The notes below the pieces were generated by a model. The model ran no database searches. It was not told where the DNA came from and was given only the letters and a program-made list of their open reading frames with translations. From Nanobdellota archaeon (GTDB taxonomy: Archaea > Nanobdellota > Nanobdellia > Pacearchaeales > GW2011-AR1): DNA of 64,000 bases. Numbering within the stretch: the first letter of the stretch is position 1; each line of letters opens with the position of its first letter. Shown here piece by piece: positions 39,873 through 54,864 of this stretch. The position numbers and the translations under genes are program-made. The stretch covers positions 15,285-79,284 of the forward strand of contig JAHIWS010000017.1 in the NCBI GenBank assembly GCA_018815925.1, written 5' to 3'.

Positions 39873-42374
39873 ATGAAATTTAATTTTAAAAAAATTTCTG
39901 CAATAGGAAGTAGTTTATTATTAGCTGGTATGAGCATTGCTGCTCCAATTGCTGCTGCAAACTATCCAGCACCTTTTGTTGTTGGAGGTTCAGAAGATAT
40001 CTCAGCACTTGTGTATGGAGCTAATGCTGCTACACTTGATGGTGTTTTAGCAGGTAAAATAAACGAAGATTTGAATAGTTATGTAACCACTACAACTTCT
40101 GGTACTTCAAGTACAGTTACTGGGGGAGATAGTGTTCTAATTGGGAAGTCCAGTGACCATTTAAATCTTGGAAATACCTGGTCTGTTTTTACTGGATCAG
40201 TTGGAGATGATGATTTAAGTTTATTACTTGCTGATGGAACATATAGAGCAAATGATAATGATGAGTTTGACTATGAACAAAAAATCAATCTTGGTGCTCC
40301 CACATTCTCTTTTTTTAGAGATTCAGATTACGAAGATTTGATTGGTGCTAGTGGTAAAACGCCAACACTTGGATTTAGAATCACTTCAAACACGTATATT
40401 ATGAACTATACCCTAGATTTCACAACAGATGTTGAAGATGATAGTGCAGGAGCAACTGACTTGGCAGATATAGAAGGAAGTGACTTAACTATCTTAGGTA
40501 AAACATATTATGTATCTGATGCTAAGAATGGTACTTCAAGTAGTGTTGCAGGTAAATTTACACTTTTAGACTCAGCACAGATTGGAACAGTTAGTGAAGG
40601 AGAGAGTGTAACTATCTCTGGACATGATGTTAGTATTTCCTACATGGACAATAATGAGGTTAAATTCATTGTAGATGGGAAAGATGTTCCTTCAAGTGGG
40701 AAACTTACTGCTGGAAGTAGCTATAAGTTAGATGATGGTTCATACATTGGAGTAAGAGATATAAGTAAACTTGAAATCCAAGGAGAAATTGGGACTGCTT
40801 CATTTAGTATTGGGTCAGGAAAATTAGAAGTTACTTCAGGATCTGAAGTAAAACTCAACGATGATACTATTAGTGGTGTAAGAGGATGGATCCACAAAGG
40901 AACTGCATCTGGAGGAGTTGAAAAAATAGACAAGATTGTTCTTGAATGGAGAGTTGATGGTGAAGTTTTTATAACTCCTGAATCAGAATTGATATTACCT
41001 GGTTTTGGATCTATTAAGTTTTCAATGAATTCTATCATGAGAAATACAGAAGAAAAAATCACTATTGATAGAGATGGAGATACAAGCATTGAATTAACTG
41101 CTCCAATAAAAGATGGAGATGTTAGTATAAATCTTCTTTATTCAAATGCTTCAGGAGATTGGATTGGAATTGGAAAAGACGCTACAAATAGGTTAGCAAC
41201 AGATGGAGATAGGACTCTTACTTTCATCCAAAAAGTTGGAAGTGAAGATTACCATGAAGAATTTGTTGTTTCATACAATATAACTGGCGAAGCACAATCT
41301 TATTTAATGAAAGCAAAAATTACAGAAGATAAAACTGCAGGAAGAAATGAAACAGAACTTTTGAAATATGCTAATGGAGCATGGGTAACTGTTTGTAGTG
41401 AAAAAACAGCATTAGATACATGTGATGTTGGGGATGTTACTTTAACAATTAATTCCTTAATGTCCAATTCTTCAGATAAAAATGTGTCCTTAACAGGTAG
41501 TGCAAACACTAACTTTTATACACTTTTTACTGCAGGAGGACTTAAGATAATTCTTCCTTATACAAAAGCAACTATTTTAGCATCAACAGCTGATTATGAA
41601 AAAGGTGCTTTAAATGTTACTGCTGGAAATGTAACTGGAAATAATGAAATAGAGTGGTATTTGCACATGGAAGGTGAAGACAAGGATGATAATATTGGTT
41701 CTGGAACTGGATTTAGTTTTACATTAACTTCTACTACTGCAAACAAAGTACATGTTTCTGCTGTAAACACTACTGGAGGTGGAGCTGGTTCAGGAACAGG
41801 AGGATTAACTGGTCTTGAATTAGAAGAGAGCAATAACTATTACAATTATGTGATAGATGATGTGGCTCCTAAGATCATCCATTATACAGGTGGTGATGAA
41901 GATTATGCAGAAGTATATTATCCTTCAGGAGATTCTGAAAGTTATGCAGAAGTTTTCTTAGCTGAAGTTGGTGCTCAGATTACTGCTGGAAGTGTTGGAA
42001 GTTCAGGAGGAACCTCTTTCGGATATCTTGTGGTTTCAGATAATGAAGTGGCTTCTGTGGCTAATAAAAATATAATTGTGGTTGGTGGAACTTGTATTAA
42101 TTCTGCTGCTGCTAAAGTATTAGGTGTTGCTACAGGAACTTGTGGAGCTGAATTTACAACTGCAACTGGTGTTGGAGCAGGACAGTTCTTAATACAAAGT
42201 GTTGAAGGAGCTTATACTGCTGGAAAGATTGCATTGGTTGTTGCTGGATATGAAATGGCAGAGACACAAATGGCTACAACATACCTAACAACTCAGAAGC
42301 CGGATGTAAGTGCTGGTAACAAATATACAGGTACATCTTCTACAAGTGCTACTCTTGTTACAGAAACAGCTTAG
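39873..42374 (+). CDS. Secreted S-layer-like glycoprotein candidate
   Basis: Signal peptide MKFNFKKISAIGSSLLLAGMSIAAPIAAA; 833 aa, Thr/Ser/Gly/Asp-rich, many N-x-S/T sequons; preceded by a 500-nt AT-rich leader and followed by an oligo-T terminator. Confidence 0.55.
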   Translation: MKFNFKKISAIGSSLLLAGMSIAAPIAAANYPAPFVVGGSEDISALVYGANAATLDGVLAGKINEDLNSYVTTTTSGTSSTVTGGDSVLIGKSSDHLNLGNTWSVFTGSVGDDDLSLLLADGTYRANDNDEFDYEQKINLGAPTFSFFRDSDYEDLIGASGKTPTLGFRITSNTYIMNYTLDFTTDVEDDSAGATDLADIEGSDLTILGKTYYVSDAKNGTSSSVAGKFTLLDSAQIGTVSEGESVTISGHDVSISYMDNNEVKFIVDGKDVPSSGKLTAGSSYKLDDGSYIGVRDISKLEIQGEIGTASFSIGSGKLEVTSGSEVKLNDDTISGVRGWIHKGTASGGVEKIDKIVLEWRVDGEVFITPESELILPGFGSIKFSMNSIMRNTEEKITIDRDGDTSIELTAPIKDGDVSINLLYSNASGDWIGIGKDATNRLATDGDRTLTFIQKVGSEDYHEEFVVSYNITGEAQSYLMKAKITEDKTAGRNETELLKYANGAWVTVCSEKTALDTCDVGDVTLTINSLMSNSSDKNVSLTGSANTNFYTLFTAGGLKIILPYTKATILASTADYEKGALNVTAGNVTGNNEIEWYLHMEGEDKDDNIGSGTGFSFTLTSTTANKVHVSAVNTTGGGAGSGTGGLTGLELEESNNYYNYVIDDVAPKIIHYTGGDEDYAEVYYPSGDSESYAEVFLAEVGAQITAGSVGSSGGTSFGYLVVSDNEVASVANKNIIVVGGTCINSAAAKVLGVATGTCGAEFTTATGVGAGQFLIQSVEGAYTAGKIALVVAGYEMAETQMATTYLTTQKPDVSAGNKYTGTSSTSATLVTETA

Positions 42375-42415
42375 TAAATCAAATTTAATTTTTTCTTTTT
42401 TCTTTTTTCTTTTTT
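42375..42415 (+). terminator. Oligo-T transcription terminator downstream of the S-layer-like gene
   Basis: TTTTTTCTTTTTTCTTTTTTCTTTTTTT tract immediately after the stop codon (archaeal poly-T termination signal). Confidence 0.5.
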
Positions 42416-42491
42416 TAGGATATATTGGAAATCTAAGAAACCTCTTGAATGGTTAAGCAAAGTTTTTATACTCTTTATCATAAAAGAAAAT

Positions 42492-43073
42492 ATGAGAAAG
42501 ATAAACTTAAAAAATAAGAAAGAAAAGGACAAACGAACAAAACAATTTCTTGTAGGAGCCATTCTTATAGCTATAATGTTTTTTAGTGTTTTAGGATATT
42601 CTTTTAGTGGAAAAGACCAAAAAAATACAAATAAGGTGGTTTATAATGGATTTGAATTCACAAAACAAGATCCTTACTGGATTTCAGAAAAAGAAAGTTT
42701 AAAATTTGTTTTTACATATAATCCTGAAGAAACTTCTAGGATTGATTCATATTTAAAAGATTTAAATAATTATTATGGAAAACCTCTTTATATTTATTCT
42801 GATGCTGATGAATCAGAATTAGAAATTTATAGAAATCTTGATCCCAGAAATAATCCTATTGTTCAAAGAATTCAACCAGCATGTTTAGAAGAGCAGAAAT
42901 GTGAAGGAGATTTACCTATTAAAACTTGTGAAGATAATTTTATCATAATTAAAGAAGATAATATGACCACTATTGTGCAGGATAATAATTGTGTATTTAT
43001 TCAGGCTTCTAAAGAGGATTTAACAAAGATTACAGATGAATTTTTATTTAAACTATTTAAAATAGTGCAATAA
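42492..43073 (+). CDS. Secreted/anchored hypothetical protein
   Basis: N-terminal signal anchor FLVGAILIAIMFFSVLGYSF; 193 aa, Cys-containing. Confidence 0.45.
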   Translation: MRKINLKNKKEKDKRTKQFLVGAILIAIMFFSVLGYSFSGKDQKNTNKVVYNGFEFTKQDPYWISEKESLKFVFTYNPEETSRIDSYLKDLNNYYGKPLYIYSDADESELEIYRNLDPRNNPIVQRIQPACLEEQKCEGDLPIKTCEDNFIIIKEDNMTTIVQDNNCVFIQASKEDLTKITDEFLFKLFKIVQ

Positions 43074-43104
43074 ATCTTATAAACTAAAAAAATAGAAAAG
43101 AATA

Positions 43105-43767
43105 ATGGAATGGAAAAGAGATAAAGAAGAGGAGAACAAAAAAGAGCTAGAAGAAAAAATAAAAAATAACTTAGATATTGAACAAAATAAAACTCTAAAA
43201 AAAATTTTTGTTTTTCTTGGTGTTTTTATACTAATTATAACTTTATGGGTAATTTTTATTAATTCTACTAAACATTTTGAGTACAGAGGTATAACAGGAA
43301 ATGTTATTAAAGAAGGAGAACTAATTTTTTATCAAACTACTGTTCCAATGAAATATCAAGGAGAGTGGGTGGATTACAATATTTTTTTAAGAAATAGTCC
43401 TAAAAGTTTGGAGAGGATTCCTTTTGATGGAGAAATTAATTTATTACATAATATGGTTTTAGAAAGTGAGGAAGAGTTTTCATGTGATGGAAAAGGAATT
43501 ATTTCTATTGTAAATTTAAAAAATTTATATAATGTAGTAGGGACAAAAGTAATAAAAGATGAAAATGCAACCTGTGACCCAGAAGGAAGATATATGTTTT
43601 TAAGAATTCAAAATGGAGATGTGACAAGTATAGAACAAGTAGGTCCTGCCTGTTACAACCTTAATGTTAACAATTGTGAAATTTTAGAAGTAACAGAAAA
43701 ATTTATGGTTGAAACTCTTGTTAAAGCAAATGAGATAGTTAATGAAAATAAGGAAAATTTTTCTTAA
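43105..43767 (+). CDS. Secreted/anchored hypothetical protein
   Basis: N-terminal charged region then anchor IFVFLGVFILIITLWVIFI; 220 aa. Confidence 0.45.
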   Translation: MEWKRDKEEENKKELEEKIKNNLDIEQNKTLKKIFVFLGVFILIITLWVIFINSTKHFEYRGITGNVIKEGELIFYQTTVPMKYQGEWVDYNIFLRNSPKSLERIPFDGEINLLHNMVLESEEEFSCDGKGIISIVNLKNLYNVVGTKVIKDENATCDPEGRYMFLRIQNGDVTSIEQVGPACYNLNVNNCEILEVTEKFMVETLVKANEIVNENKENFS

Positions 43768-44386
43768 TTTTTTTCTTTTTCAAGATTATATAAACTAATA
43801 TTGTTAGTAAAGAAAAAAATAAGAGAATAAGAGTCATAAAATTCATGTTCTGATAAATCCACTCAAGATTAGTTCCAAAAACATATCCAAGATAAATTAA
43901 AACTAGAGCCCAGATTCCTGCTCCTAATGCAGTAAAAAAAGTAAATTTAAAAAAATTCATTCTTGAAAATCCTGCTGGAAGAGAAATTAGTTGTCTTATC
44001 ATAGGAATAAGTCTTCCAGCAAAAGTTGTGATTTCTCCGTGTTTTTTAAAATAAAGGTCTGCTTCACTTAATTTTCTTTTATTTAAAAATAAAAATTTTC
44101 CATGTTTTGAAATAAGATAATCAACTGTTTTTCTCCCCAGGAAAAAGGCTAAAAAGAAATTAATAAAAGCCCCAATCAGACTTCCTAATAATCCTGCAAA
44201 AAAAACAAAGAAAAAATTCATTTCTCCCCTAGCAATAAGTGCTCCTGCAGGAATTAAAATAACTTCACTTGGAAAAGGAAAAAAAGAACTTTCAATAGTC
44301 ATCCCCAAAAAAATACCTAAGTAACCTAAATTTCCTATAAAAGATAAAATACTTTCTATTAATTGAGATATTATTTCTAAAACCAT
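43739..44386 (-). CDS. DedA/SNARE-associated (VTT domain) family membrane protein
   Basis: LGYLGIFLGMTIESSFFPFPSEVILIPAGAL motif typical of DedA family. Confidence 0.65.
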   Translation of the reverse strand: MVLEIISQLIESILSFIGNLGYLGIFLGMTIESSFFPFPSEVILIPAGALIARGEMNFFFVFFAGLLGSLIGAFINFFLAFFLGRKTVDYLISKHGKFLFLNKRKLSEADLYFKKHGEITTFAGRLIPMIRQLISLPAGFSRMNFFKFTFFTALGAGIWALVLIYLGYVFGTNLEWIYQNMNFMTLILLFFSLLTILVYIILKKKKIKKNFPYFH

Positions 44387-44387
44387 T

Positions 44388-44921
44388 TTATTTTTTTAAT
44401 AGGGATTTAGAATATAAAAACTTTACATCTGAATAAAAAGGAATTTCTTTTATCTTAAACATTTTTACTTCTGTGAACCAGATTCCAATAACAAAAACAA
44501 TGCTTATCAAATACCAAAATAATTTATGAGTTATATCAAACAAAGAAGAACTTGTCACATTCAAAACATCCAATAAAAAAATCCTTAAAATATTTAAGAT
44601 TAAAAAAACTACAAAAGCAAACAAAATCATTTTTATTCTTTTAGAAAATTTTATTTGTGGAACAGAAAGATTAAATATAAGCAAAAGATAATAAGCAGAT
44701 CCTGCAACACAAGCAGGAATTAAGGTTATAGAGGATTCTCCTATTATTAAAATATTTTGGATAATTAAAATATCAAAGAATATATCCAATAAGAAGTAAA
44801 CAGGATAAATTGTAAGTGGAGTAAATATAAAATACAAAACATTTATTCCAACCCCCAGGGCAATCAGAATTAGGTATCTTGTTAAAATGCTAAATATACC
44901 TCTTTTCCATACCATTTCCAT
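44388..44921 (-). CDS. Archaeosortase/exosortase-like polytopic membrane protein (candidate)
   Basis: 177 aa, about 5 TMs, conserved-looking ITLIPACVAGSAYY Cys motif and later Arg residues; adjacent to a surface protein with C-terminal TM and basic tail. Confidence 0.35.
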   Translation of the reverse strand: MEMVWKRGIFSILTRYLILIALGVGINVLYFIFTPLTIYPVYFLLDIFFDILIIQNILIIGESSITLIPACVAGSAYYLLLIFNLSVPQIKFSKRIKMILFAFVVFLILNILRIFLLDVLNVTSSSLFDITHKLFWYLISIVFVIGIWFTEVKMFKIKEIPFYSDVKFLYSKSLLKK

Positions 44922-44970
44922 ATATGCAAAAGAAAAATATTATTTAAATAGTTGACCCTTAGAGTATTAT

Positions 44971-45267
44971 TTAAAAGTCACAGCTATCATTATAAGTTCT
45001 TCCTTTTAGTGGGCCTTCTAATATTGTTAAACTATAATCTACTGTTTCACTACCGCTTTTTAGAGTATAAGAAGAACAATCATATTTAACTGTTTTACCT
45101 AAAAGAGCTGCCTGAAAAGGAAGTAGACTAAAATCAGAATTAGTTTCAAAAGGAAACTCTACTTCTAATTTATCACCTTCTTTTTTTTCTATATCAAAAG
45201 TAAAAAATCCGTTGTGAATACTCCCCAAATCAACTACTTTTCCTTCAACTGTTGTATGATGTGTCAT
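44971..45267 (-). CDS. Hypothetical protein
   Basis: 98-aa ORF between archaeosortase-like gene and surface protein gene. Confidence 0.35.
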   Translation of the reverse strand: MTHHTTVEGKVVDLGSIHNGFFTFDIEKKEGDKLEVEFPFETNSDFSLLPFQAALLGKTVKYDCSSYTLKSGSETVDYSLTILEGPLKGRTYNDSCDF

Positions 45268-45285
45268 TTTTATATAATTAAAGAA

Positions 45286-47196
45286 TTATCTCTTAGCAAC
45301 TCTTACTGCTACGATTATGATTATAATAACAAGAATTATATTTAATAATCCAATTCCCCATAGATATGCATTGCCTCCACCAATAATTCCTCCAGTAATT
45401 CCTGCAAAACCTGTCTTTTCAATTGTAACAGAAGCAGGTTGACTTAAAATCAATTTATTGTTTGAAGTAACATCAATATAAAAAATTTGTTCCCCTGAAA
45501 TACCTTTGTTTACTATAAAAGTAAATAATGCATCTCCTGAATCTCCAGGAGCTAAAACAAGTGTTTTAAGGTTAACATCTGTTAATTCAGCCCAATCAGA
45601 ATACCCTGAAACATCTAATCCATATGCTGCTAAAACATCACTTGGGTTGGTTATTGTCGCTCTAACTACTAATTCTTTTCCTGCTTGACCTCCAGATTCT
45701 AATTGTGCAGTAACAAGAACATTCCCTACATCTGGAGTACTAACACTTTCTCCTTCTATTATGATTGGAAACCTAAATAATGCACTATCTTCTTCTTCAT
45801 CAGTTTCATAAAGATTATCATCATCATAAACTCTAAATTCAATATAATAAGTTCCCTTTTTTGCATCTCCTGGTATTTTTATAGTTGCTTCTAATTTTTC
45901 ACTATCAAATTCTTTTACCTCTCCAATAGTGATTTTTTTGTTTATTCCTAAACTACTCTCAGAAATGAATACCATAACATCATCTTGATCATTGTCTCCA
46001 ACATTCCAAACATCTGCAGTTAAATGTAATTCACTTCCTGGGGAAATTGTTGATTCTTGGATATTAATATCATCTAAAATAACAAAATTATCATCAGTTA
46101 TTACTTCTACTTCTTGAGAATCCCAATCACAAGTGTTTTCATTATCATATTCATCAGCATCATTATCATTTATTTTTCCTGTTGCTTTAACATAAAAAAT
46201 TGCATTTTCTCCTTTAAAATCATCTATATTTTTATTTAATTTAAATGTTATAGTAATTGTTTTATCATCATTGTAATCAAGATTAAAATTACTTTCATCT
46301 CCTTTCATTATTCTTTTACCATCTGTTGTATATAATTCCCATTCAATTTTTATTTTATCTATATCCCAGCTTCCATCAATATCTACATCTGTGTCAATTT
46401 CTATTTCATCAAAAAGATACCAGTATGAGTCATCATCTCCAAAACCTTCTTTAACATTTATTTGATCTATTGTTATGTCTAATTGCCCTGGATTTGGGTT
46501 ATCACAAAAAGAACCTATTGTGTTAACTCTTTCTGAGGCAGTAGTTGTTCCAGAAGTTGCAGTAACTGTTACAAAATTTGAGCCAAAATTTAAATTACTT
46601 AAGTCACTTGTTATAGTAATTATAACATTTTGGGATGCTCCAGCATTTAAATTAAAATTATTTGTATTAAAAGAAATATCAAAATCACTTCCAGATTTAA
46701 CTAAAGAAATTCCTGTTAAAACAGTGTTTCCCTTGTTTGTTATAGTCATAGTTCCTGAATTGCTTCCTTGTGATATTGTTAAAGGAGTAATTGAAAGAGA
46801 AGGAGAATCATTAATAGTAATTGTTGAAAAAGTTAAAGAATCAGTGTCTGTGGTATTAGTATCCTTTACAATAATTTCAGCATCATTAATGCTCCCTGAT
46901 GCATGTTCATTGATTTTTAGTGTTGCTGTTAAAGATAAATTATCTCCTGCATTTATAGAAGTTATTTTTGGTAATGATGTCCAAGTAGCTTTTGCAGGAT
47001 TAATAGTGTCTGACCAATCAAGATTTGTATAATCAGCATCTGATTCTAAATTAAAACTAATTGTAATTTCAGTATTATGCTCTGCTGTAGAAGGTACAGT
47101 AACTTCAGTTAAAGTTAAAGTAGCACTAGCAATACCTATAAATAAGAAAAGTACAAATATACTTAGACTATTCAAAACAATTGATTTTGTTATCAT
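45286..47196 (-). CDS. Cell-surface protein with N-terminal signal peptide and C-terminal TM anchor (sortase-type sorting signal candidate)
   Basis: Signal peptide; 636 aa, Thr/Ser/Asn/Asp-rich repeats with many sequons; C-terminus GGGNAYLWGIGLLNIILVIIIIIVAVRVAKR (Gly-rich linker, TM, basic tail). Confidence 0.55.
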   Translation of the reverse strand: MITKSIVLNSLSIFVLFLFIGIASATLTLTEVTVPSTAEHNTEITISFNLESDADYTNLDWSDTINPAKATWTSLPKITSINAGDNLSLTATLKINEHASGSINDAEIIVKDTNTTDTDSLTFSTITINDSPSLSITPLTISQGSNSGTMTITNKGNTVLTGISLVKSGSDFDISFNTNNFNLNAGASQNVIITITSDLSNLNFGSNFVTVTATSGTTTASERVNTIGSFCDNPNPGQLDITIDQINVKEGFGDDDSYWYLFDEIEIDTDVDIDGSWDIDKIKIEWELYTTDGKRIMKGDESNFNLDYNDDKTITITFKLNKNIDDFKGENAIFYVKATGKINDNDADEYDNENTCDWDSQEVEVITDDNFVILDDINIQESTISPGSELHLTADVWNVGDNDQDDVMVFISESSLGINKKITIGEVKEFDSEKLEATIKIPGDAKKGTYYIEFRVYDDDNLYETDEEEDSALFRFPIIIEGESVSTPDVGNVLVTAQLESGGQAGKELVVRATITNPSDVLAAYGLDVSGYSDWAELTDVNLKTLVLAPGDSGDALFTFIVNKGISGEQIFYIDVTSNNKLILSQPASVTIEKTGFAGITGGIIGGGNAYLWGIGLLNIILVIIIIIVAVRVAKR

Positions 47197-47280: not shown

Positions 47281-48123
47281 CTAATCTTTATTTTCTTGAC
47301 GAAGCTTTATTAATTCTTTTTCATAATTTTCTATTCTTTTTTTGACAGCATCAATTTTTTCTTGTTTTTTACTTTTTTCTTTATTTTCACCTGTTTCCTT
47401 AATCTTTTTTATTTCTTCTTTAACTTCTCTTATTTTATCTTCTGATTCTTTTATTGTTTTTTCAAGATCATCAATTTTGTCTTGTTTTTTGGCTTTTACT
47501 TCACTTAATTTTCTTACTTTTATTTCTTTAGGTTCTTTTTCTAATTTGTATTTTGTTATTTTTGAAGTAATAAAAACAATAATTAGTAGAGCAAAGATTC
47601 CAACAATAAAATAAAATATTTTACTTGAAAAAACATTTCCAATAACAAAACCAGTAATAGCAGCACTGTTTTGACTATTTTCATCTTCTATTAAAATTTC
47701 ATCTTCTATTGTTTCATTTTCAGGTTCTTCTGTAATATTGATTTCATTGTTTGGAGTTTCAATAAATTCAAAGTAAGATGGGGCTCTTTCTATGTAGATT
47801 TCTTCTCCTGCTGCATTCTTTAGAAACATTTCTGGATTTAATGTCCAGGTTACTTTTTCTCCATCTTTTTTAATAAAGAGTATTAAATTAAATTCAGGCT
47901 CATTAGATAAAAGAGTAAAATAGCAATCTCCATATTGATTTGATATATTTTTAAAAACCTCTATTTTGCCTTCACTTGGAGAAAAACCAATCTTATAAGT
48001 AGTTATTTGTACTTCGTGATAAGGCATTGTTTTTATTTTTATTTCAGTAGTATATGCACTCACAACCTGAAATAATAAAATAAATACTAATAAAGCTAAA
48101 ACTAATTTACCTCTTTCTTTCAT
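47281..48123 (-). CDS. Membrane protein with extracellular N-domain and K/E-rich cytoplasmic coiled coil
   Basis: Signal peptide, central TM FYFIVGIFALLIIVFI, C-terminal coiled-coil KEIKVRKLSEVKAKKQDKIDDLEK... Confidence 0.45.
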   Translation of the reverse strand: MKERGKLVLALLVFILLFQVVSAYTTEIKIKTMPYHEVQITTYKIGFSPSEGKIEVFKNISNQYGDCYFTLLSNEPEFNLILFIKKDGEKVTWTLNPEMFLKNAAGEEIYIERAPSYFEFIETPNNEINITEEPENETIEDEILIEDENSQNSAAITGFVIGNVFSSKIFYFIVGIFALLIIVFITSKITKYKLEKEPKEIKVRKLSEVKAKKQDKIDDLEKTIKESEDKIREVKEEIKKIKETGENKEKSKKQEKIDAVKKRIENYEKELIKLRQENKD

Positions 48124-49775: not shown

Positions 49776-50165
49776 TCAATCCCACCTATCTTTTTTTTCT
49801 TCAGGGGGTTTTACTGCTTTGTGAATTTTTGCAAAAGAAGGAGTTACAATTATCATGTTTTCTCCAAACCCGGCAATACTTCCTTCAAGAGCATCTGCTG
49901 TTTTTTTTATTTTTGATACAGCTCTTTTCAACTCTATTGAATCTTTTTGTCTAAGAATTTTAATATCAACTATCGCAATTGTATAACCTTCTCTTAAAGA
50001 ATTAAGAATATCAGTAACATCTTCGTATTGTTTTAGTGTAAATAGTTTTACAAGAACCTTGTTTTCTTTTTCAGGCTGATCTAAATCAATTTCTAAATAT
50101 TCATTGCCAACTTCTTCATCATCTGTTGAGCCTGAAAAAACCTTTTTTAGTTTATCAAAAACCAT
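49776..50165 (-). CDS. sepF: Cell division protein SepF-like (DUF552)
   Basis: DILNSLREGYTIAIVDIKIL...LKRAVSKIKKTADALEGSIAGFGENMIIVTP matches SepF core; FtsZ encoded 3.5 kb away. Confidence 0.55.
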   Translation of the reverse strand: MVFDKLKKVFSGSTDDEEVGNEYLEIDLDQPEKENKVLVKLFTLKQYEDVTDILNSLREGYTIAIVDIKILRQKDSIELKRAVSKIKKTADALEGSIAGFGENMIIVTPSFAKIHKAVKPPEEKKDRWD

Positions 50166-53224: not shown

Positions 53225-53716
53225 TTAATAATCATAATAAGAATAATCGTTTATTATTTCTATTCCCATTGCCTTTGCAGTTTTAATATTAGATTCTTCC
53301 ATAAACCATTTAGATAATCTTTCAAATTGAGCTTTTTTACAAATGTCCCAATTGGCTCTAGGAGTATCTTCTTTTGGGAGTTGTTTTTCTTCAAATCTTA
53401 ATAAAAGTTTTGTGGTTGGAGGAGCTCCAGGATAAGTTAAATCAACTTGAATAAATTGGTAACCTACTGAAAAACCCATATTGGTATTAATAGGCATAAA
53501 ACAAATATTATCTCTTTTAATAATTATCTCTATAATTTTCCCTAGTTGTCTTTTAGTTAATTTTTTATCTTTATAATTATCTACAAATCCTTCTCCATAA
53601 ACTTTAGAACATACTCTTTGAACACCTCTCATAGATTTATCTAGTTTAGTAAAGAAATTTATATCTGCTGAGGTTAATTTTTTTGATAATTTTGTCATAT
53701 TATTCAATAAACTCAA
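53225..53716 (-). CDS. Hypothetical protein
   Basis: 163-aa ORF between ftsZ and secE; 17-nt overlap with ftsZ; no recognisable family. Confidence 0.4.
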   Translation of the reverse strand: MSLLNNMTKLSKKLTSADINFFTKLDKSMRGVQRVCSKVYGEGFVDNYKDKKLTKRQLGKIIEIIIKRDNICFMPINTNMGFSVGYQFIQVDLTYPGAPPTTKLLLRFEEKQLPKEDTPRANWDICKKAQFERLSKWFMEESNIKTAKAMGIEIINDYSYYDY

Positions 53717-54821
53717 TTCCTAATTCTTCCTCGATTTCACGGTGTTTCATACTTTCTACAGATTCACCATGTCCTAGAATTTGAGCTGATTTAACTCCTG
53801 TAACAATTAATAAAACTCTAATTGATTTTTCCATATCAGCAGAAATCTGGGCTCCCCATATTAATCTCGCGTCAGGACTTAGTTTTTCTCCTATTGTTTC
53901 TATTATTATTTTACACTCTTCTAGGCTCATATTAGGACCTCCAACAATATTTACTAAAGAACCAGTTGCATTTGAAATATCAACATCAAGTAAAGGATTT
54001 TGGATTGCTTTGTTAACAGCATCCATAGCTCTTTGCTCTGTATCAGATTCACCCATTCCTATTAAAGAAACACCTCCATTTGCCATGACAGCCCTTATAT
54101 CTGCAAAATCAAGATTAACTAAACCAGAAGTTGTTACTAATTCAGTGACTCCTTTAACCGCATTAGTGAGTATTTCATCAGCAATTTTAAATGCTGTATG
54201 TAATGGAAGTTCAGGAGCTAATTCTAAAAGTTTATCATTGGGAATAACTATAAGGGTATCAACACTAGCTTCAAGTCTTTCAAGACCATCCATTGCATTC
54301 TCAATTCTTTTTTTACCTTCTATTGTAAAAGGAAGAGTCACAACCCCTATAGTCAAAGAACCTTGTTTTTTTGCCAAATCTGCAATAACAGGAGCAGCTC
54401 CTGTTCCTGTTCCTCCTCCTAATCCACATGTAATAAAAATCATATCGCTTCCTAAAAGTTTTTTCTTTATTTCAGATCCAGATTCTTTTGCTGCTTCTTG
54501 CCCTATTTTTGGATTGCTTCCAGCTCCTAAACCTTGTGTTAATTCTTTTCCAATCAAAATTTTATGGTCAGCATTAACATAAAGAAGATCTTGTGCATCT
54601 GTATTTATTGCTATAAGTTCCCCTCCTTTGATTCCAATTTCTCTCATTCTGCTTAAAGAATTGCCTCCACCACCCCCAACTCCAATAACTTTAATTTTAG
54701 CTGATTGTTTTTTAAGGAGTTCTTCTAATTCATGATCAATTTCTTTTAGTTCAGAAGAAAATTCAGACATAGGTTTAGAATATGAATTCCCTCCATTATT
54801 TGAACCATAAATATCATCCAT
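53700..54821 (-). CDS. ftsZ: Cell division GTPase FtsZ
   Basis: GGGGNSLSRM, GLGAGSNPKIGQEAA and GLGGGTGTGAAPVIA tubulin/FtsZ signatures; start set at the second Met (MDDIYG...) because the track start (54854) lies inside the conserved promoter motif at 54848-54864. Confidence 0.85.
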   Translation of the reverse strand: MDDIYGSNNGGNSYSKPMSEFSSELKEIDHELEELLKKQSAKIKVIGVGGGGGNSLSRMREIGIKGGELIAINTDAQDLLYVNADHKILIGKELTQGLGAGSNPKIGQEAAKESGSEIKKKLLGSDMIFITCGLGGGTGTGAAPVIADLAKKQGSLTIGVVTLPFTIEGKKRIENAMDGLERLEASVDTLIVIPNDKLLELAPELPLHTAFKIADEILTNAVKGVTELVTTSGLVNLDFADIRAVMANGGVSLIGMGESDTEQRAMDAVNKAIQNPLLDVDISNATGSLVNIVGGPNMSLEECKIIIETIGEKLSPDARLIWGAQISADMEKSIRVLLIVTGVKSAQILGHGESVESMKHREIEEELGIEFIE

Positions 54822-54847
54822 GTCTTGAAGTAAGCAGGAATTATTTA

Positions 54848-54864
54848 TAAGCATTATTGTGGTA
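54848..54864 (-). promoter_or_regulatory. Conserved BRE/TATA promoter motif (copy 1, upstream of ftsZ)
   Basis: Plus-strand TAAGCATTATTGTGGTA (coding strand TACCACAATAATGCTTA followed by AAAA), about 27 nt upstream of the probable ftsZ start; identical to copy at 62927. Confidence 0.5.

Follow-up and report, generated by a model that had tools for sequence, protein, structure and literature searches.

Within the 64-kb window analysed here (the whole stretch of DNA, from an organism that GenBank labels Nanoarchaeota archaeon), two genes on the minus strand encode a hydrophobic, polytopic protein of 177 aa that includes the motif PACVAGSAYY and a secreted protein of 636 aa. A single ORF separates them, and both were found where a sequence-only reading of this DNA had placed them. 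The features of the locus, including a conserved block of divergently transcribed neighbours, are collected in Table 1.

Table 1. Genes and sequence features of the predicted protein-sorting locus (positions in the window)
Feature	Position	Strand	Basis
Pacearchaeosortase, 177 aa, five predicted TM helices	44388-44921	-	NF033505 and TIGR04178 matches; identical to GenBank MBU0894374.1 ('pacearchaeosortase')
Candidate catalytic residues of the 177-aa protein	Cys71 44709-44711; Arg113 44583-44585; His132 44526-44528	-	Invariance in homologs
PACE-CTERM protein ('putative S-layer protein'), 636 aa, predicted sole substrate	45286-47196	-	NF033506; identical to GenBank MBU0894376.1 ('putative S-layer protein')
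Sec-type signal peptide of the 636-aa protein, residues 1-25, MITKSIVLNSLSIFVLFLFIGIASA	47122-47196	-	Direct sequence reading; cleavage site inferred
PACE-CTERM sorting signal, residues 596-636, GFAGITGGIIGGGNAYLWGIGLLNIILVIIIIIVAVRVAKR	45289-45411	-	Tail conservation and AF2 model
Core signature NAYLWGIGLLN, residues 609-619, abutting and entering the TM helix	45340-45372	-	Ortholog conservation
Intervening 98-aa ORF (KKF48_04815)	44971-45267	-	ORFan, between the substrate and sortase genes
DedA/VTT-family membrane protein	43739-44386	-	PF09335 VTT_dom, E 1.6e-23
Conserved divergent neighbour block, three proteins	39873-43767	+	Synteny
Secreted Gly/Thr/Ser-rich protein, 833 aa, anchorless	39873-42374	+	Beside the sortase in 26/40 loci
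N-terminally anchored protein, 193 aa	42492-43073	+	Beside the sortase in 31/40 loci
N-terminally anchored protein, 220 aa	43105-43767	+	Beside the sortase in 35/40 loci

The profile matches place the 177-aa protein in the exosortase/archaeosortase superfamily and, within it, in the curated pacearchaeosortase family. The NCBIfam HMM search gave 208.2 bits (E 8.2e-62, profile positions 2-166 of 167) against NF033505 'pacearchaeosortase', for which the curated cutoff is 80 bits, and 28.4 bits over residues 68-149 against the exosortase/archaeosortase signature TIGR04178 (curated cutoff 23 bits). All 48 divergent homologs that we aligned, with 32-55% identity to the query, pass NF033505, and 44 of them match TIGR04178. 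The Pfam model PF09721 (Exosortase_EpsH) is matched by six of the 48, and a Pfam search with the window protein gave no match. Only six columns are invariant in the alignment of these homologs, and three of them are Cys71 (located within PACVAGSAYY), Arg113 and His132; the same residues show no variation in a separate alignment of 28 closer homologs. The superfamily membership that had been suspected from the Cys motif is thus supported both by the models and by the invariant Cys/Arg/His set. The AF2 model of the enzyme (pLDDT 81.8) has five long helices. Its helix boundaries, together with the loop charges (four K/R in residues 86-97, seven at the C-terminus and none in residues 49-68), would place the three candidate catalytic residues towards the outer leaflet. 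No solved structure of a homolog was found. A profile search with the enzyme against 1.84 billion representatives returned family members only among the best 150 matches listed, and no second sortase (paralog) was found within the window.

Against NF033506 ('PACE-CTERM-PROT, putative S-layer protein'; curated cutoff 110 bits) the 636-aa protein scores 461 bits (E 7.3e-138, profile positions 2-627 of 627), its only NCBIfam match at E<=1. A signal peptide opens the protein, approximately five beta-sandwich (CARDB/Ig-like) domains follow, and a linker rich in Gly leads on to the C-terminal sorting signal; the CARDB domain PF07705 is present in its homologs. In the AF2 model (pLDDT 84.5) the signal-peptide helix spans residues 2-20, and among 30 homologs S24 of the signal peptide is invariant and A25 nearly so. 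The sequon density does not bear out the earlier description of this protein as glycoprotein-like: it has three N-x-S/T sequons, whereas about 9.5 would be predicted by its composition.

In the sorting signal, the Gly-rich linker GFAGITGGIIGGG is followed by NAYLWGIGLLN at the helix start, and the hydrophobic helix by the basic RVAKR tail. The AF2 model shows disorder over residues 597-609 and a helix over residues 610-635. The pattern conserved in orthologs reads GITG...N-x-Y-L-W-G-I-G-x-L-N, then the helix, and then R-x-x-K/R. Among 35 orthologous tails, the columns N619, L622 and I626 are conserved in 34 sequences each, W613 and A630 in 31 each, and G602 in 28, a degree of conservation that exceeds what hydrophobicity would account for. 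The tripartite signal of the adjoining secreted protein is conserved and, as described beforehand, is distinct from PGF-CTERM. NAYLWGIGLLN is the presumed recognition and cleavage region, the site being placed by analogy with PGF-CTERM and PEP-CTERM, whose motif directly adjoins the TM segment (Haft preprint 10.1101/2023.06.07.544157). With E-values of 8e-62 for the enzyme and 7e-138 for the substrate, and with the signature kept in 35 orthologous tails, these features are not due to chance. The expectation that several proteins of the genome would end in the same tail was not borne out within the window, where the 636-aa protein alone carries it and no further PACE-type tails were found. Likewise, a scan of 1595 ORFs gave the signature a single time in each locus. 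The motif thus recurs across orthologs of other genomes and not on several proteins of this genome region.

In its order of Gly-rich motif, TM segment and basic residues, the tail has a superficial likeness to GlyGly-CTERM signals (PMC6219818), and it could on these grounds be addressed to a rhomboid-family rhombosortase and not to the neighbouring enzyme. We give this reading practically no chance. NF033506 is the sole NCBIfam model that recognises the substrate at E<=1, no rhomboid protease is present among the window proteins scanned, and it is an archaeosortase-family enzyme that is syntenic with the substrate; the family assignments effectively refute a GlyGly-CTERM identity.

Of 40 related DPANN loci, which bear the labels Pacearchaeota, Woesearchaeota and Nanoarchaeota, 34 have the gene for the predicted substrate upstream of the sortase gene and in the same orientation, so that the pairing of enzyme and substrate by adjacency, proposed from this single locus, is a recurrent arrangement. 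Four of the six exceptions have no more than ~300 bp of contig upstream of the sortase, and the substrate would therefore sit off-contig. In L038 and L039, both with full flanks, the sortase has no adjoining substrate. Such unlinked sortases, and the permanent C-terminal TM anchors of S-layer subunits known in Sulfolobales (PMC6098224), would fit a C-terminal helix that serves as a permanent anchor, as in Sulfolobus SlaB, with a sortase homolog that is non-catalytic or has another target. However, W613, N619 and the GITG linker are conserved far past the needs of a generic anchor, the Cys/Arg/His triad is invariant, the synteny extends over the 34 loci, and no locus contains an alternative candidate tail. 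A permanent anchor is accordingly very unlikely, and processing of the neighbouring protein by the sortase is the reading that we prefer.

The intervening 98-aa ORF has no family match, no homologs but itself among 5.8 billion proteins, and no counterpart in the 40 related loci. As an ORFan absent from all of these loci, it was rejected as a third component of the system. In 19 of the 40 loci its slot is taken by a gene for a PAP2 phosphatase, transcribed divergently from the sortase. On the other side of the sortase gene, a single base separates its stop codon from the start codon of the DedA/VTT gene, and the two genes are thus probably co-transcribed. The DedA gene, which codes for a flippase-type protein, adjoins the sortase gene in 15 of the 40 loci, this window among them, and is an accessory neighbour of some loci only; its product matches the UptA-like model NF052604 below the cutoff. 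A promoter and terminator scan with a bacterial sigma-70 model, which is uninformative for an archaeon, gave counts at shuffle level. The 833-, 193- and 220-aa proteins of the divergent block have no family or PDB match; judging by synteny only, they may take part in the same envelope module. In addition, one sortase homolog forms an in-frame fusion with a CDP-alcohol phosphatidyltransferase. No such enzyme was found near the sortase in the window or in the 40 loci, so that the fusion stays a single case.

For the 636-aa protein, 'S-layer' is best taken as a database label only. The protein has no sequence match to solved S-layer proteins in the PDB, and a fold search gave generic Ig/macroglobulin-like chains only. 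It may instead serve as a variable surface adhesin or in host contact, or as the anchored 'stalk' of a layer with two components in which the 833-aa protein forms the lattice; we regard this as a serious possibility, although not the favoured one, and it contests the label and not the sorting mechanism. Homologs align with a hypervariable N-terminal part of ~230 aa and a conserved C-terminal part of ~400 aa, CARDB/Ig-like domains are typical of adhesins, and the anchorless 833-aa protein is kept at the majority of the loci, all of which, together with the generic result of the fold search, agree with such a role. The label, on the other hand, was chosen by the NCBIfam curators, the family occurs in a single copy and is conserved widely, as an envelope component should be, and the Haloferax SLG is itself an ArtA substrate (PMC6098224).

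Compared with the NF033505/NF033506 family, both window proteins score far above the cutoffs over the full models, and the gene order and the tail signature are the same. Nothing essential differs from other pacearchaeosortase loci; the particulars of this window are the ORFan in the slot held by PAP2 in 19 of the 40 relatives and the DedA gene directly 3' of the sortase. With the ArtA/PGF-CTERM system of Haloferax volcanii the pair shares the TIGR04178 superfamily, the same candidate triad, and a major surface protein as the target, which in both cases ends in a tripartite signal with its motif right next to the TM helix. The window enzyme is shorter, with 177 aa and ~5 TM helices against ~300 aa for ArtA (912-bp gene; PMC7157517). 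The signature is W-G-I-G-x-L-N in place of the P-G-F of ArtA targets, with no PGF in the window tail, and the host belongs to DPANN whereas ArtA is found in Euryarchaeota. Each locus has one target, whereas PGF-motif proteins number nine in H. volcanii and range from 1 to 52 among genomes with ArtA (PMC6098224). The ArtA model TIGR04125 gave no reported match to the 177-aa protein at E<=1 and was reached at E<=0.01 by only two of the 48 divergent homologs.

Similar in size are the short forms ArtD, ArtE, XrtX, XrtY, XrtH and heimdallarchaeosortase (models of 150-168 positions), to which there are weak cross-matches. The window protein itself matches XrtX (E 4.6e-6) and ArtD (E 0.005); among the 48 homologs, 26 match ArtE and 20 match heimdallarchaeosortase, with weak matches also to ArtD, XrtX and XrtH. 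The scores are nevertheless far under the respective cutoffs (26.6 bits against 170 for XrtX), and the cognate signals and host lineages differ. Sortase A of Gram-positive bacteria, with its LPXTG signal, is a functional analogue that has a Cys/Arg/His triad, a tripartite C-terminal signal and a proposed thioester-transpeptidation model. Its fold is unrelated, Sortase A being a soluble beta-barrel domain and the window enzyme a polytopic membrane protein; moreover, a spacer separates LPXTG from the TM segment, and Sortase A uses lipid II as the acceptor (Haft preprint 10.1101/2023.06.07.544157).

The mechanism that we propose, including cleavage, its site and lipid attachment, is inferred by extrapolation from the distantly related ArtA. 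In ArtA, for which alone removal of the C-terminal helix is known, Cys-173 is an active-site residue, cleavage and lipid attachment are coupled, and PssA and PssD are required (PMC7157517, PMC6098224). The superfamily has been described as having a Cys/Arg/His triad and targets whose motif adjoins the TM segment (Haft preprint 10.1101/2023.06.07.544157). The 636-aa preprotein would be exported by Sec, with its C-terminal helix holding the position in the membrane and the RVAKR tail in the cytoplasm. The sortase would then recognise the signature, its Cys, Arg and His residues lying near the outer membrane face, and attack of Cys71 on the peptide bond would remove the helix and leave a thioester intermediate. 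Resolution of this intermediate by the amine of a membrane lipid or a similar nucleophile would yield a surface protein anchored by lipid and not by a helix.

The enzyme might alternatively be a pure endopeptidase that clips the helix with no transfer to lipid, the protein being kept on the cell non-covalently, for example via the 833-, 193- and 220-aa neighbours. DPANN archaea are generally regarded as poor in lipid biosynthesis, which counts for this alternative, as do the conserved secreted or anchored neighbours, which could serve as docking partners, and the finding that no PssA or PssD homologs were seen among the window ORFs scanned. One-step transpeptidation by archaeosortases is, furthermore, unproven (Haft preprint 10.1101/2023.06.07.544157). 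We nonetheless consider a pure endopeptidase rather unlikely. Cys/Arg/His is the same residue set as in transpeptidase sortases, processing by ArtA goes together with lipid attachment, and genes for lipid handling occur by the sortase, namely PAP2 (19/40), DedA (15/40) and the one phosphatidyltransferase fusion.

Altogether, we estimate a probability of about 80% that the locus encodes a dedicated pacearchaeosortase/PACE-CTERM protein-sorting pair in a DPANN archaeon; with one enzyme and one target, it looks like a dedicated pair. The sequence-only reading had taken it for a new subtype. This part of the claim fails, since the NCBIfam models NF033505 and NF033506 already name both partners and GenBank gives these names to the very same proteins. 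The result is a correct re-discovery, from raw sequence, of a system named by curators, and for this reason it adds no new kind of system. Published reviews place archaeosortases in part of the Euryarchaeota and still call the envelopes of DPANN archaea uncharacterised (PMC6098224, PMC5744192). The literature that we searched contains no paper naming or describing the pacearchaeosortase/PACE-CTERM system and no experiments on it.

The residual value of the find lies in a pair that exists only as database models. The smallest kind of archaeosortase and matched 1:1 with its target, pacearchaeosortase offers a compact model for questions that concern the superfamily, such as whether the enzyme is a one-step transpeptidase and which acceptor it uses. 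With regard to lipid transfer by the sortase, the association with PAP2, DedA and the fusion raises the tentative and rather unlikely idea that, in this DPANN lineage, the sortase may be coupled to a lipid-acceptor supply of its own. If so, reduced and putatively lipid-scavenging archaea would remodel lipid specifically to anchor a single major surface protein. If the coupling to lipid is real, the anchored 636-aa protein and the anchorless 833-aa protein might together form a two-component envelope layer.

Five co-directional genes lie on the minus strand (see table), separated, from the 280-aa to the 215-aa gene, by successive gaps of 84, 18, 49 and 1 bp. Two of them had been taken, in a sequence-only reading, for an archaeosortase-like enzyme and a neighbouring substrate with a sorting signal; the ORF map recovers every feature described there in its reported place, and comparison with exosortase/archaeosortase models (NCBIfam) bears out this good inference. 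The 177-aa protein, hydrophobic along its whole length and containing PACVAGSAYY, scores above cutoff against NF033505 'pacearchaeosortase' (208.2 bits, E 8e-62, cutoff 80) and the superfamily signature TIGR04178 (28.4 bits, cutoff 23), with sub-threshold matches to the short sortases XrtX, XrtY, ArtD and XrtH. The 636-aa protein, which has an N-terminal signal peptide and the C-terminus GFAGITGGIIGGGNAYLWGIGLLNIILVIIIIIVAVRVAKR, aligns end to end with NF033506 'PACE-CTERM-PROT, putative S-layer protein' (461 bits, E 7e-138, cutoff 110).

Judged by these similarities, the pair belong fully to two existing curated families, pacearchaeosortase and PACE-CTERM. The expectation of a new subtype was wrong, since both families are curated and exact-sequence look-up found the identical proteins already named in GenBank, as pacearchaeosortase (MBU0894374.1) and 'putative S-layer protein' (MBU0894376.1), both on a 120.7-kb contig of a Nanoarchaeota archaeon MAG. 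In the literature searched, no paper contained the pacearchaeosortase or PACE-CTERM names or accession numbers or substantively linked archaeosortases to Pacearchaeota or DPANN, and no experiment was reported; the system is therefore known through database curation alone. The family is large, with 1883 matches at E<=1e-3 in a word-indexed search, several of them NCBI-named pacearchaeosortase, and 450 clusters at 50% identity in a HMMER scan of 1.84 billion representatives. One homolog (P0199, 261 aa) has an additional N-terminal membrane segment of ~95 aa, to which a weak DUF454 match among 48 homologs scanned may correspond. The Thorarchaeota label of another (P0033) is probably a binning error rather than horizontal transfer.

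Features of the pacearchaeosortase locus, its surroundings and related loci
Feature	Location	Strand	Remark
N-glycosylation / envelope-glycan-like cluster	window 34-10662		gene content
833-aa secreted Gly/Thr/Ser/Ala-rich protein	window 39873-42374	+	signal peptide, 10 sequons, no membrane anchor
193-aa protein	window 42492-43073	+	N-terminal membrane anchor, Cys-containing ectodomain
220-aa protein	window 43105-43767	+	N-terminal membrane anchor, Cys-containing ectodomain
215-aa DedA/VTT protein	window 43739-44386	-	ORF map
177-aa sortase	window 44388-44921	-	ORF map
98-aa soluble ORF	window 44971-45267	-	ORF map; between substrate and sortase; ORFan
636-aa substrate	window 45286-47196	-	ORF map
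280-aa product	window 47281-48123	-	ORF map
SepF	window 49776-50165	-	few kb from sortase locus
FtsZ	window 53700-54854	-	few kb from sortase locus
PAP2-superfamily membrane phosphatase, ~205 aa	L001:5287-5913	-	equivalent position in 18 other loci
Sortase without adjoining PACE-CTERM protein	L038:5944-6537		full 6-kb flanks
Sortase without adjoining PACE-CTERM protein	L039:5977-6516		full 6-kb flanks
P0280, CDP-alcohol phosphatidyltransferase-pacearchaeosortase fusion	L041:142-1179		ENA ERZ27254743 k141_415758

The proposed catalytic triad of exosortases and archaeosortases consists of Cys, Arg and His (Haft preprint, 10.1101/2023.06.07.544157), and Cys-173 is a reported active-site residue of Haloferax ArtA (PMC7157517; PMC6098224). 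In the sortase, C71, R113 and H132 are invariant in 28 homologs at 56-66% identity; in a divergent set of 48 representatives (32-55% identity; columns on average 22% identical), invariance is confined to six columns, namely C71, A76, N110, R113, H132 and P161. The AF2 model (pLDDT 81.8, pTM 0.72) contains helices 2-24, 26-48, 75-85, 92-122 (with Arg113), 127-154 (with His132) and 161-172, a small beta element (51-66) and a short helix (69-72) bearing Cys71; no solved structure resembling it was found. Lysines and arginines number zero in residues 49-68, four in 86-97 and seven in the C-terminal segment, so that by the positive-inside rule all three triad residues are predicted to lie towards the outer leaflet.

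The substrate model (pLDDT 84.5) comprises a signal helix (2-20), about five beta-sandwich domains (27-128, 134-228, 239-366, 372-480, 494-593), a Gly-rich linker modelled as disordered (597-609) and, at the C-terminus, a helix (610-635). In homologs, Pfam recognises CARDB and Ig-like domains, and the ~230 N-terminal residues are hypervariable while the remainder is conserved. In the PDB, Foldseek found nothing beyond generic Ig/macroglobulin-like domain chains (TM-score <=0.25), and a sequence search gave no match; 'S-layer' is here a label, not a finding. Nor is the description 'glycoprotein-like' supported by sequon density, as there are 3 sequons against 9.5 expected. Across 35 orthologs the tail has the consensus ...V-x-I-E-x-x-G-F-x-G-I-T-G-...-G-x-N-x-Y-L-W-G-I-G-x-L-N-V-I-L-...-V-A-V-R-V-A-R-K, best conserved at W613 (31/35), N619, L622 and I626 (34/35 each), A630 (31/35) and G602 (28/35), a conservation that exceeds what hydrophobicity alone would lead one to expect. 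The signature lies at the helix start without a spacer, and such signals have been described for deeply membrane-embedded cutting enzymes (Haft preprint). Applied to the 1595 stop-to-stop ORFs of the window and 40 related loci, its regular expression gives a single match in every locus, and the substrate is the sole protein in the 64-kb window whose C-terminal TM helix leads into a strongly basic end, with K/R at three of the last eight residues.

The 40 loci were taken from species-representative genomes, and 39 come from MAGs whose label reads Pacearchaeota, Woesearchaeota, Nanoarchaeota or simply 'archaeon'. The remaining one (L019, LCJG01000042.1) has its contig assigned to a CPR bacterium, Candidatus Collierbacteria, probably through a binning error and not horizontal transfer. 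A same-strand substrate homolog occurs upstream of the sortase in 34 loci, at distances of 43-1711 bp. Four of the six exceptions have the sortase start within ~300 bp of a contig end, so any substrate gene would be off-contig. In L038 and L039 the sortase is truly unlinked, and presumably the target gene is elsewhere in these genomes; the usual sortase neighbours are also missing nearby, save for a PAP2 gene kept in L039. The 98-aa ORF was rejected as a system component because it is absent from all 40 loci and a search of 5.8 billion proteins matched it to nothing but itself; it is perhaps not a real gene, or else an insertion specific to its lineage.

The system is predicted to work like that of ArtA and PGF-CTERM, yet stands outside that subfamily: the sortase has no reported ArtA model match and ~60% of the ArtA length, and the system lacks the PGF motif, has one target and resides in a DPANN host. 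Family membership, invariant triad, tripartite signal and one-to-one synteny are shown here. By analogy with ArtA, Sec would export the preprotein, the C-terminal helix would hold it transiently in the membrane, and the sortase would recognise the W-G-I-G-x-L-N region; Cys71 would then cut the chain, forming a thioester that a lipid nucleophile would resolve to yield a lipid-anchored surface protein. One-step transpeptidation by archaeosortases is a proposal even for ArtA (Haft preprint).

Lipid-handling genes offer modest leads. A divergently transcribed PAP2-superfamily phosphatase occupies the slot of the 98-aa ORF or lies just upstream of the sortase in 19/40 loci (the window has no copy, the ORFan filling the slot), a DedA/VTT protein follows the sortase in 15/40, window included, and one or both flank it in 25/40. 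P0280 is the single homolog with an in-frame fusion, pairing an N-terminal CDP-alcohol phosphatidyltransferase (PgsA/PssA-like, residues 2-170; PF01066 E 3e-29; pgsA model 98.6 bits, just under cutoff) with a genuine pacearchaeosortase domain (129 bits); its 3-kb contig has a DedA/VTT gene two genes away. This fusion, which occurs once, on one contig of one sample, bears on the lipid step and resembles the ArtA-PssA linkage of Methanosarcina and the PssA/PssD dependence of Haloferax ArtA (PMC7157517). Neither the window nor any of the 40 loci has a CDP-alcohol phosphatidyltransferase near its sortase.

The window (G+C ~28%) also carries archaeal housekeeping genes, including SecY, a ribosomal-protein operon, FtsZ, SepF, TYW1 and an AglB/STT3 N-glycosylation cluster. 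This cluster, which resembles a pathway for N-glycosylation or envelope glycans, includes genes for two glycosyltransferases (one of them GT2), a polysaccharide deacetylase, a flippase-like protein, a radical SAM protein of the B12-binding type, a MraY/GPT-like transferase and an AglB/STT3 oligosaccharyltransferase of 974 aa, which weakly matches the 'archaeosortase A system-associated' STT3 model (88.8 bits, cutoff 450). ArtA of Haloferax localises at midcell (PMC7157517); SepF is syntenic with the sortase locus in 23/40 relatives, and the closeness of SepF and FtsZ here may be coincidental. On the far side of the sortase, opposite-strand genes for the 220-aa (35/40 loci), 193-aa (31/40) and 833-aa (26/40) proteins are conserved; the first two have no family match, and the third has no family or PDB match. 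The 833-aa protein, often kept in relatives as its C-terminal ~150 aa only and encoded in a segment of locally higher G+C (0.35 vs 0.28), could itself be the lattice former, or else act as partner to the 636-aa protein, which is the anchored one.
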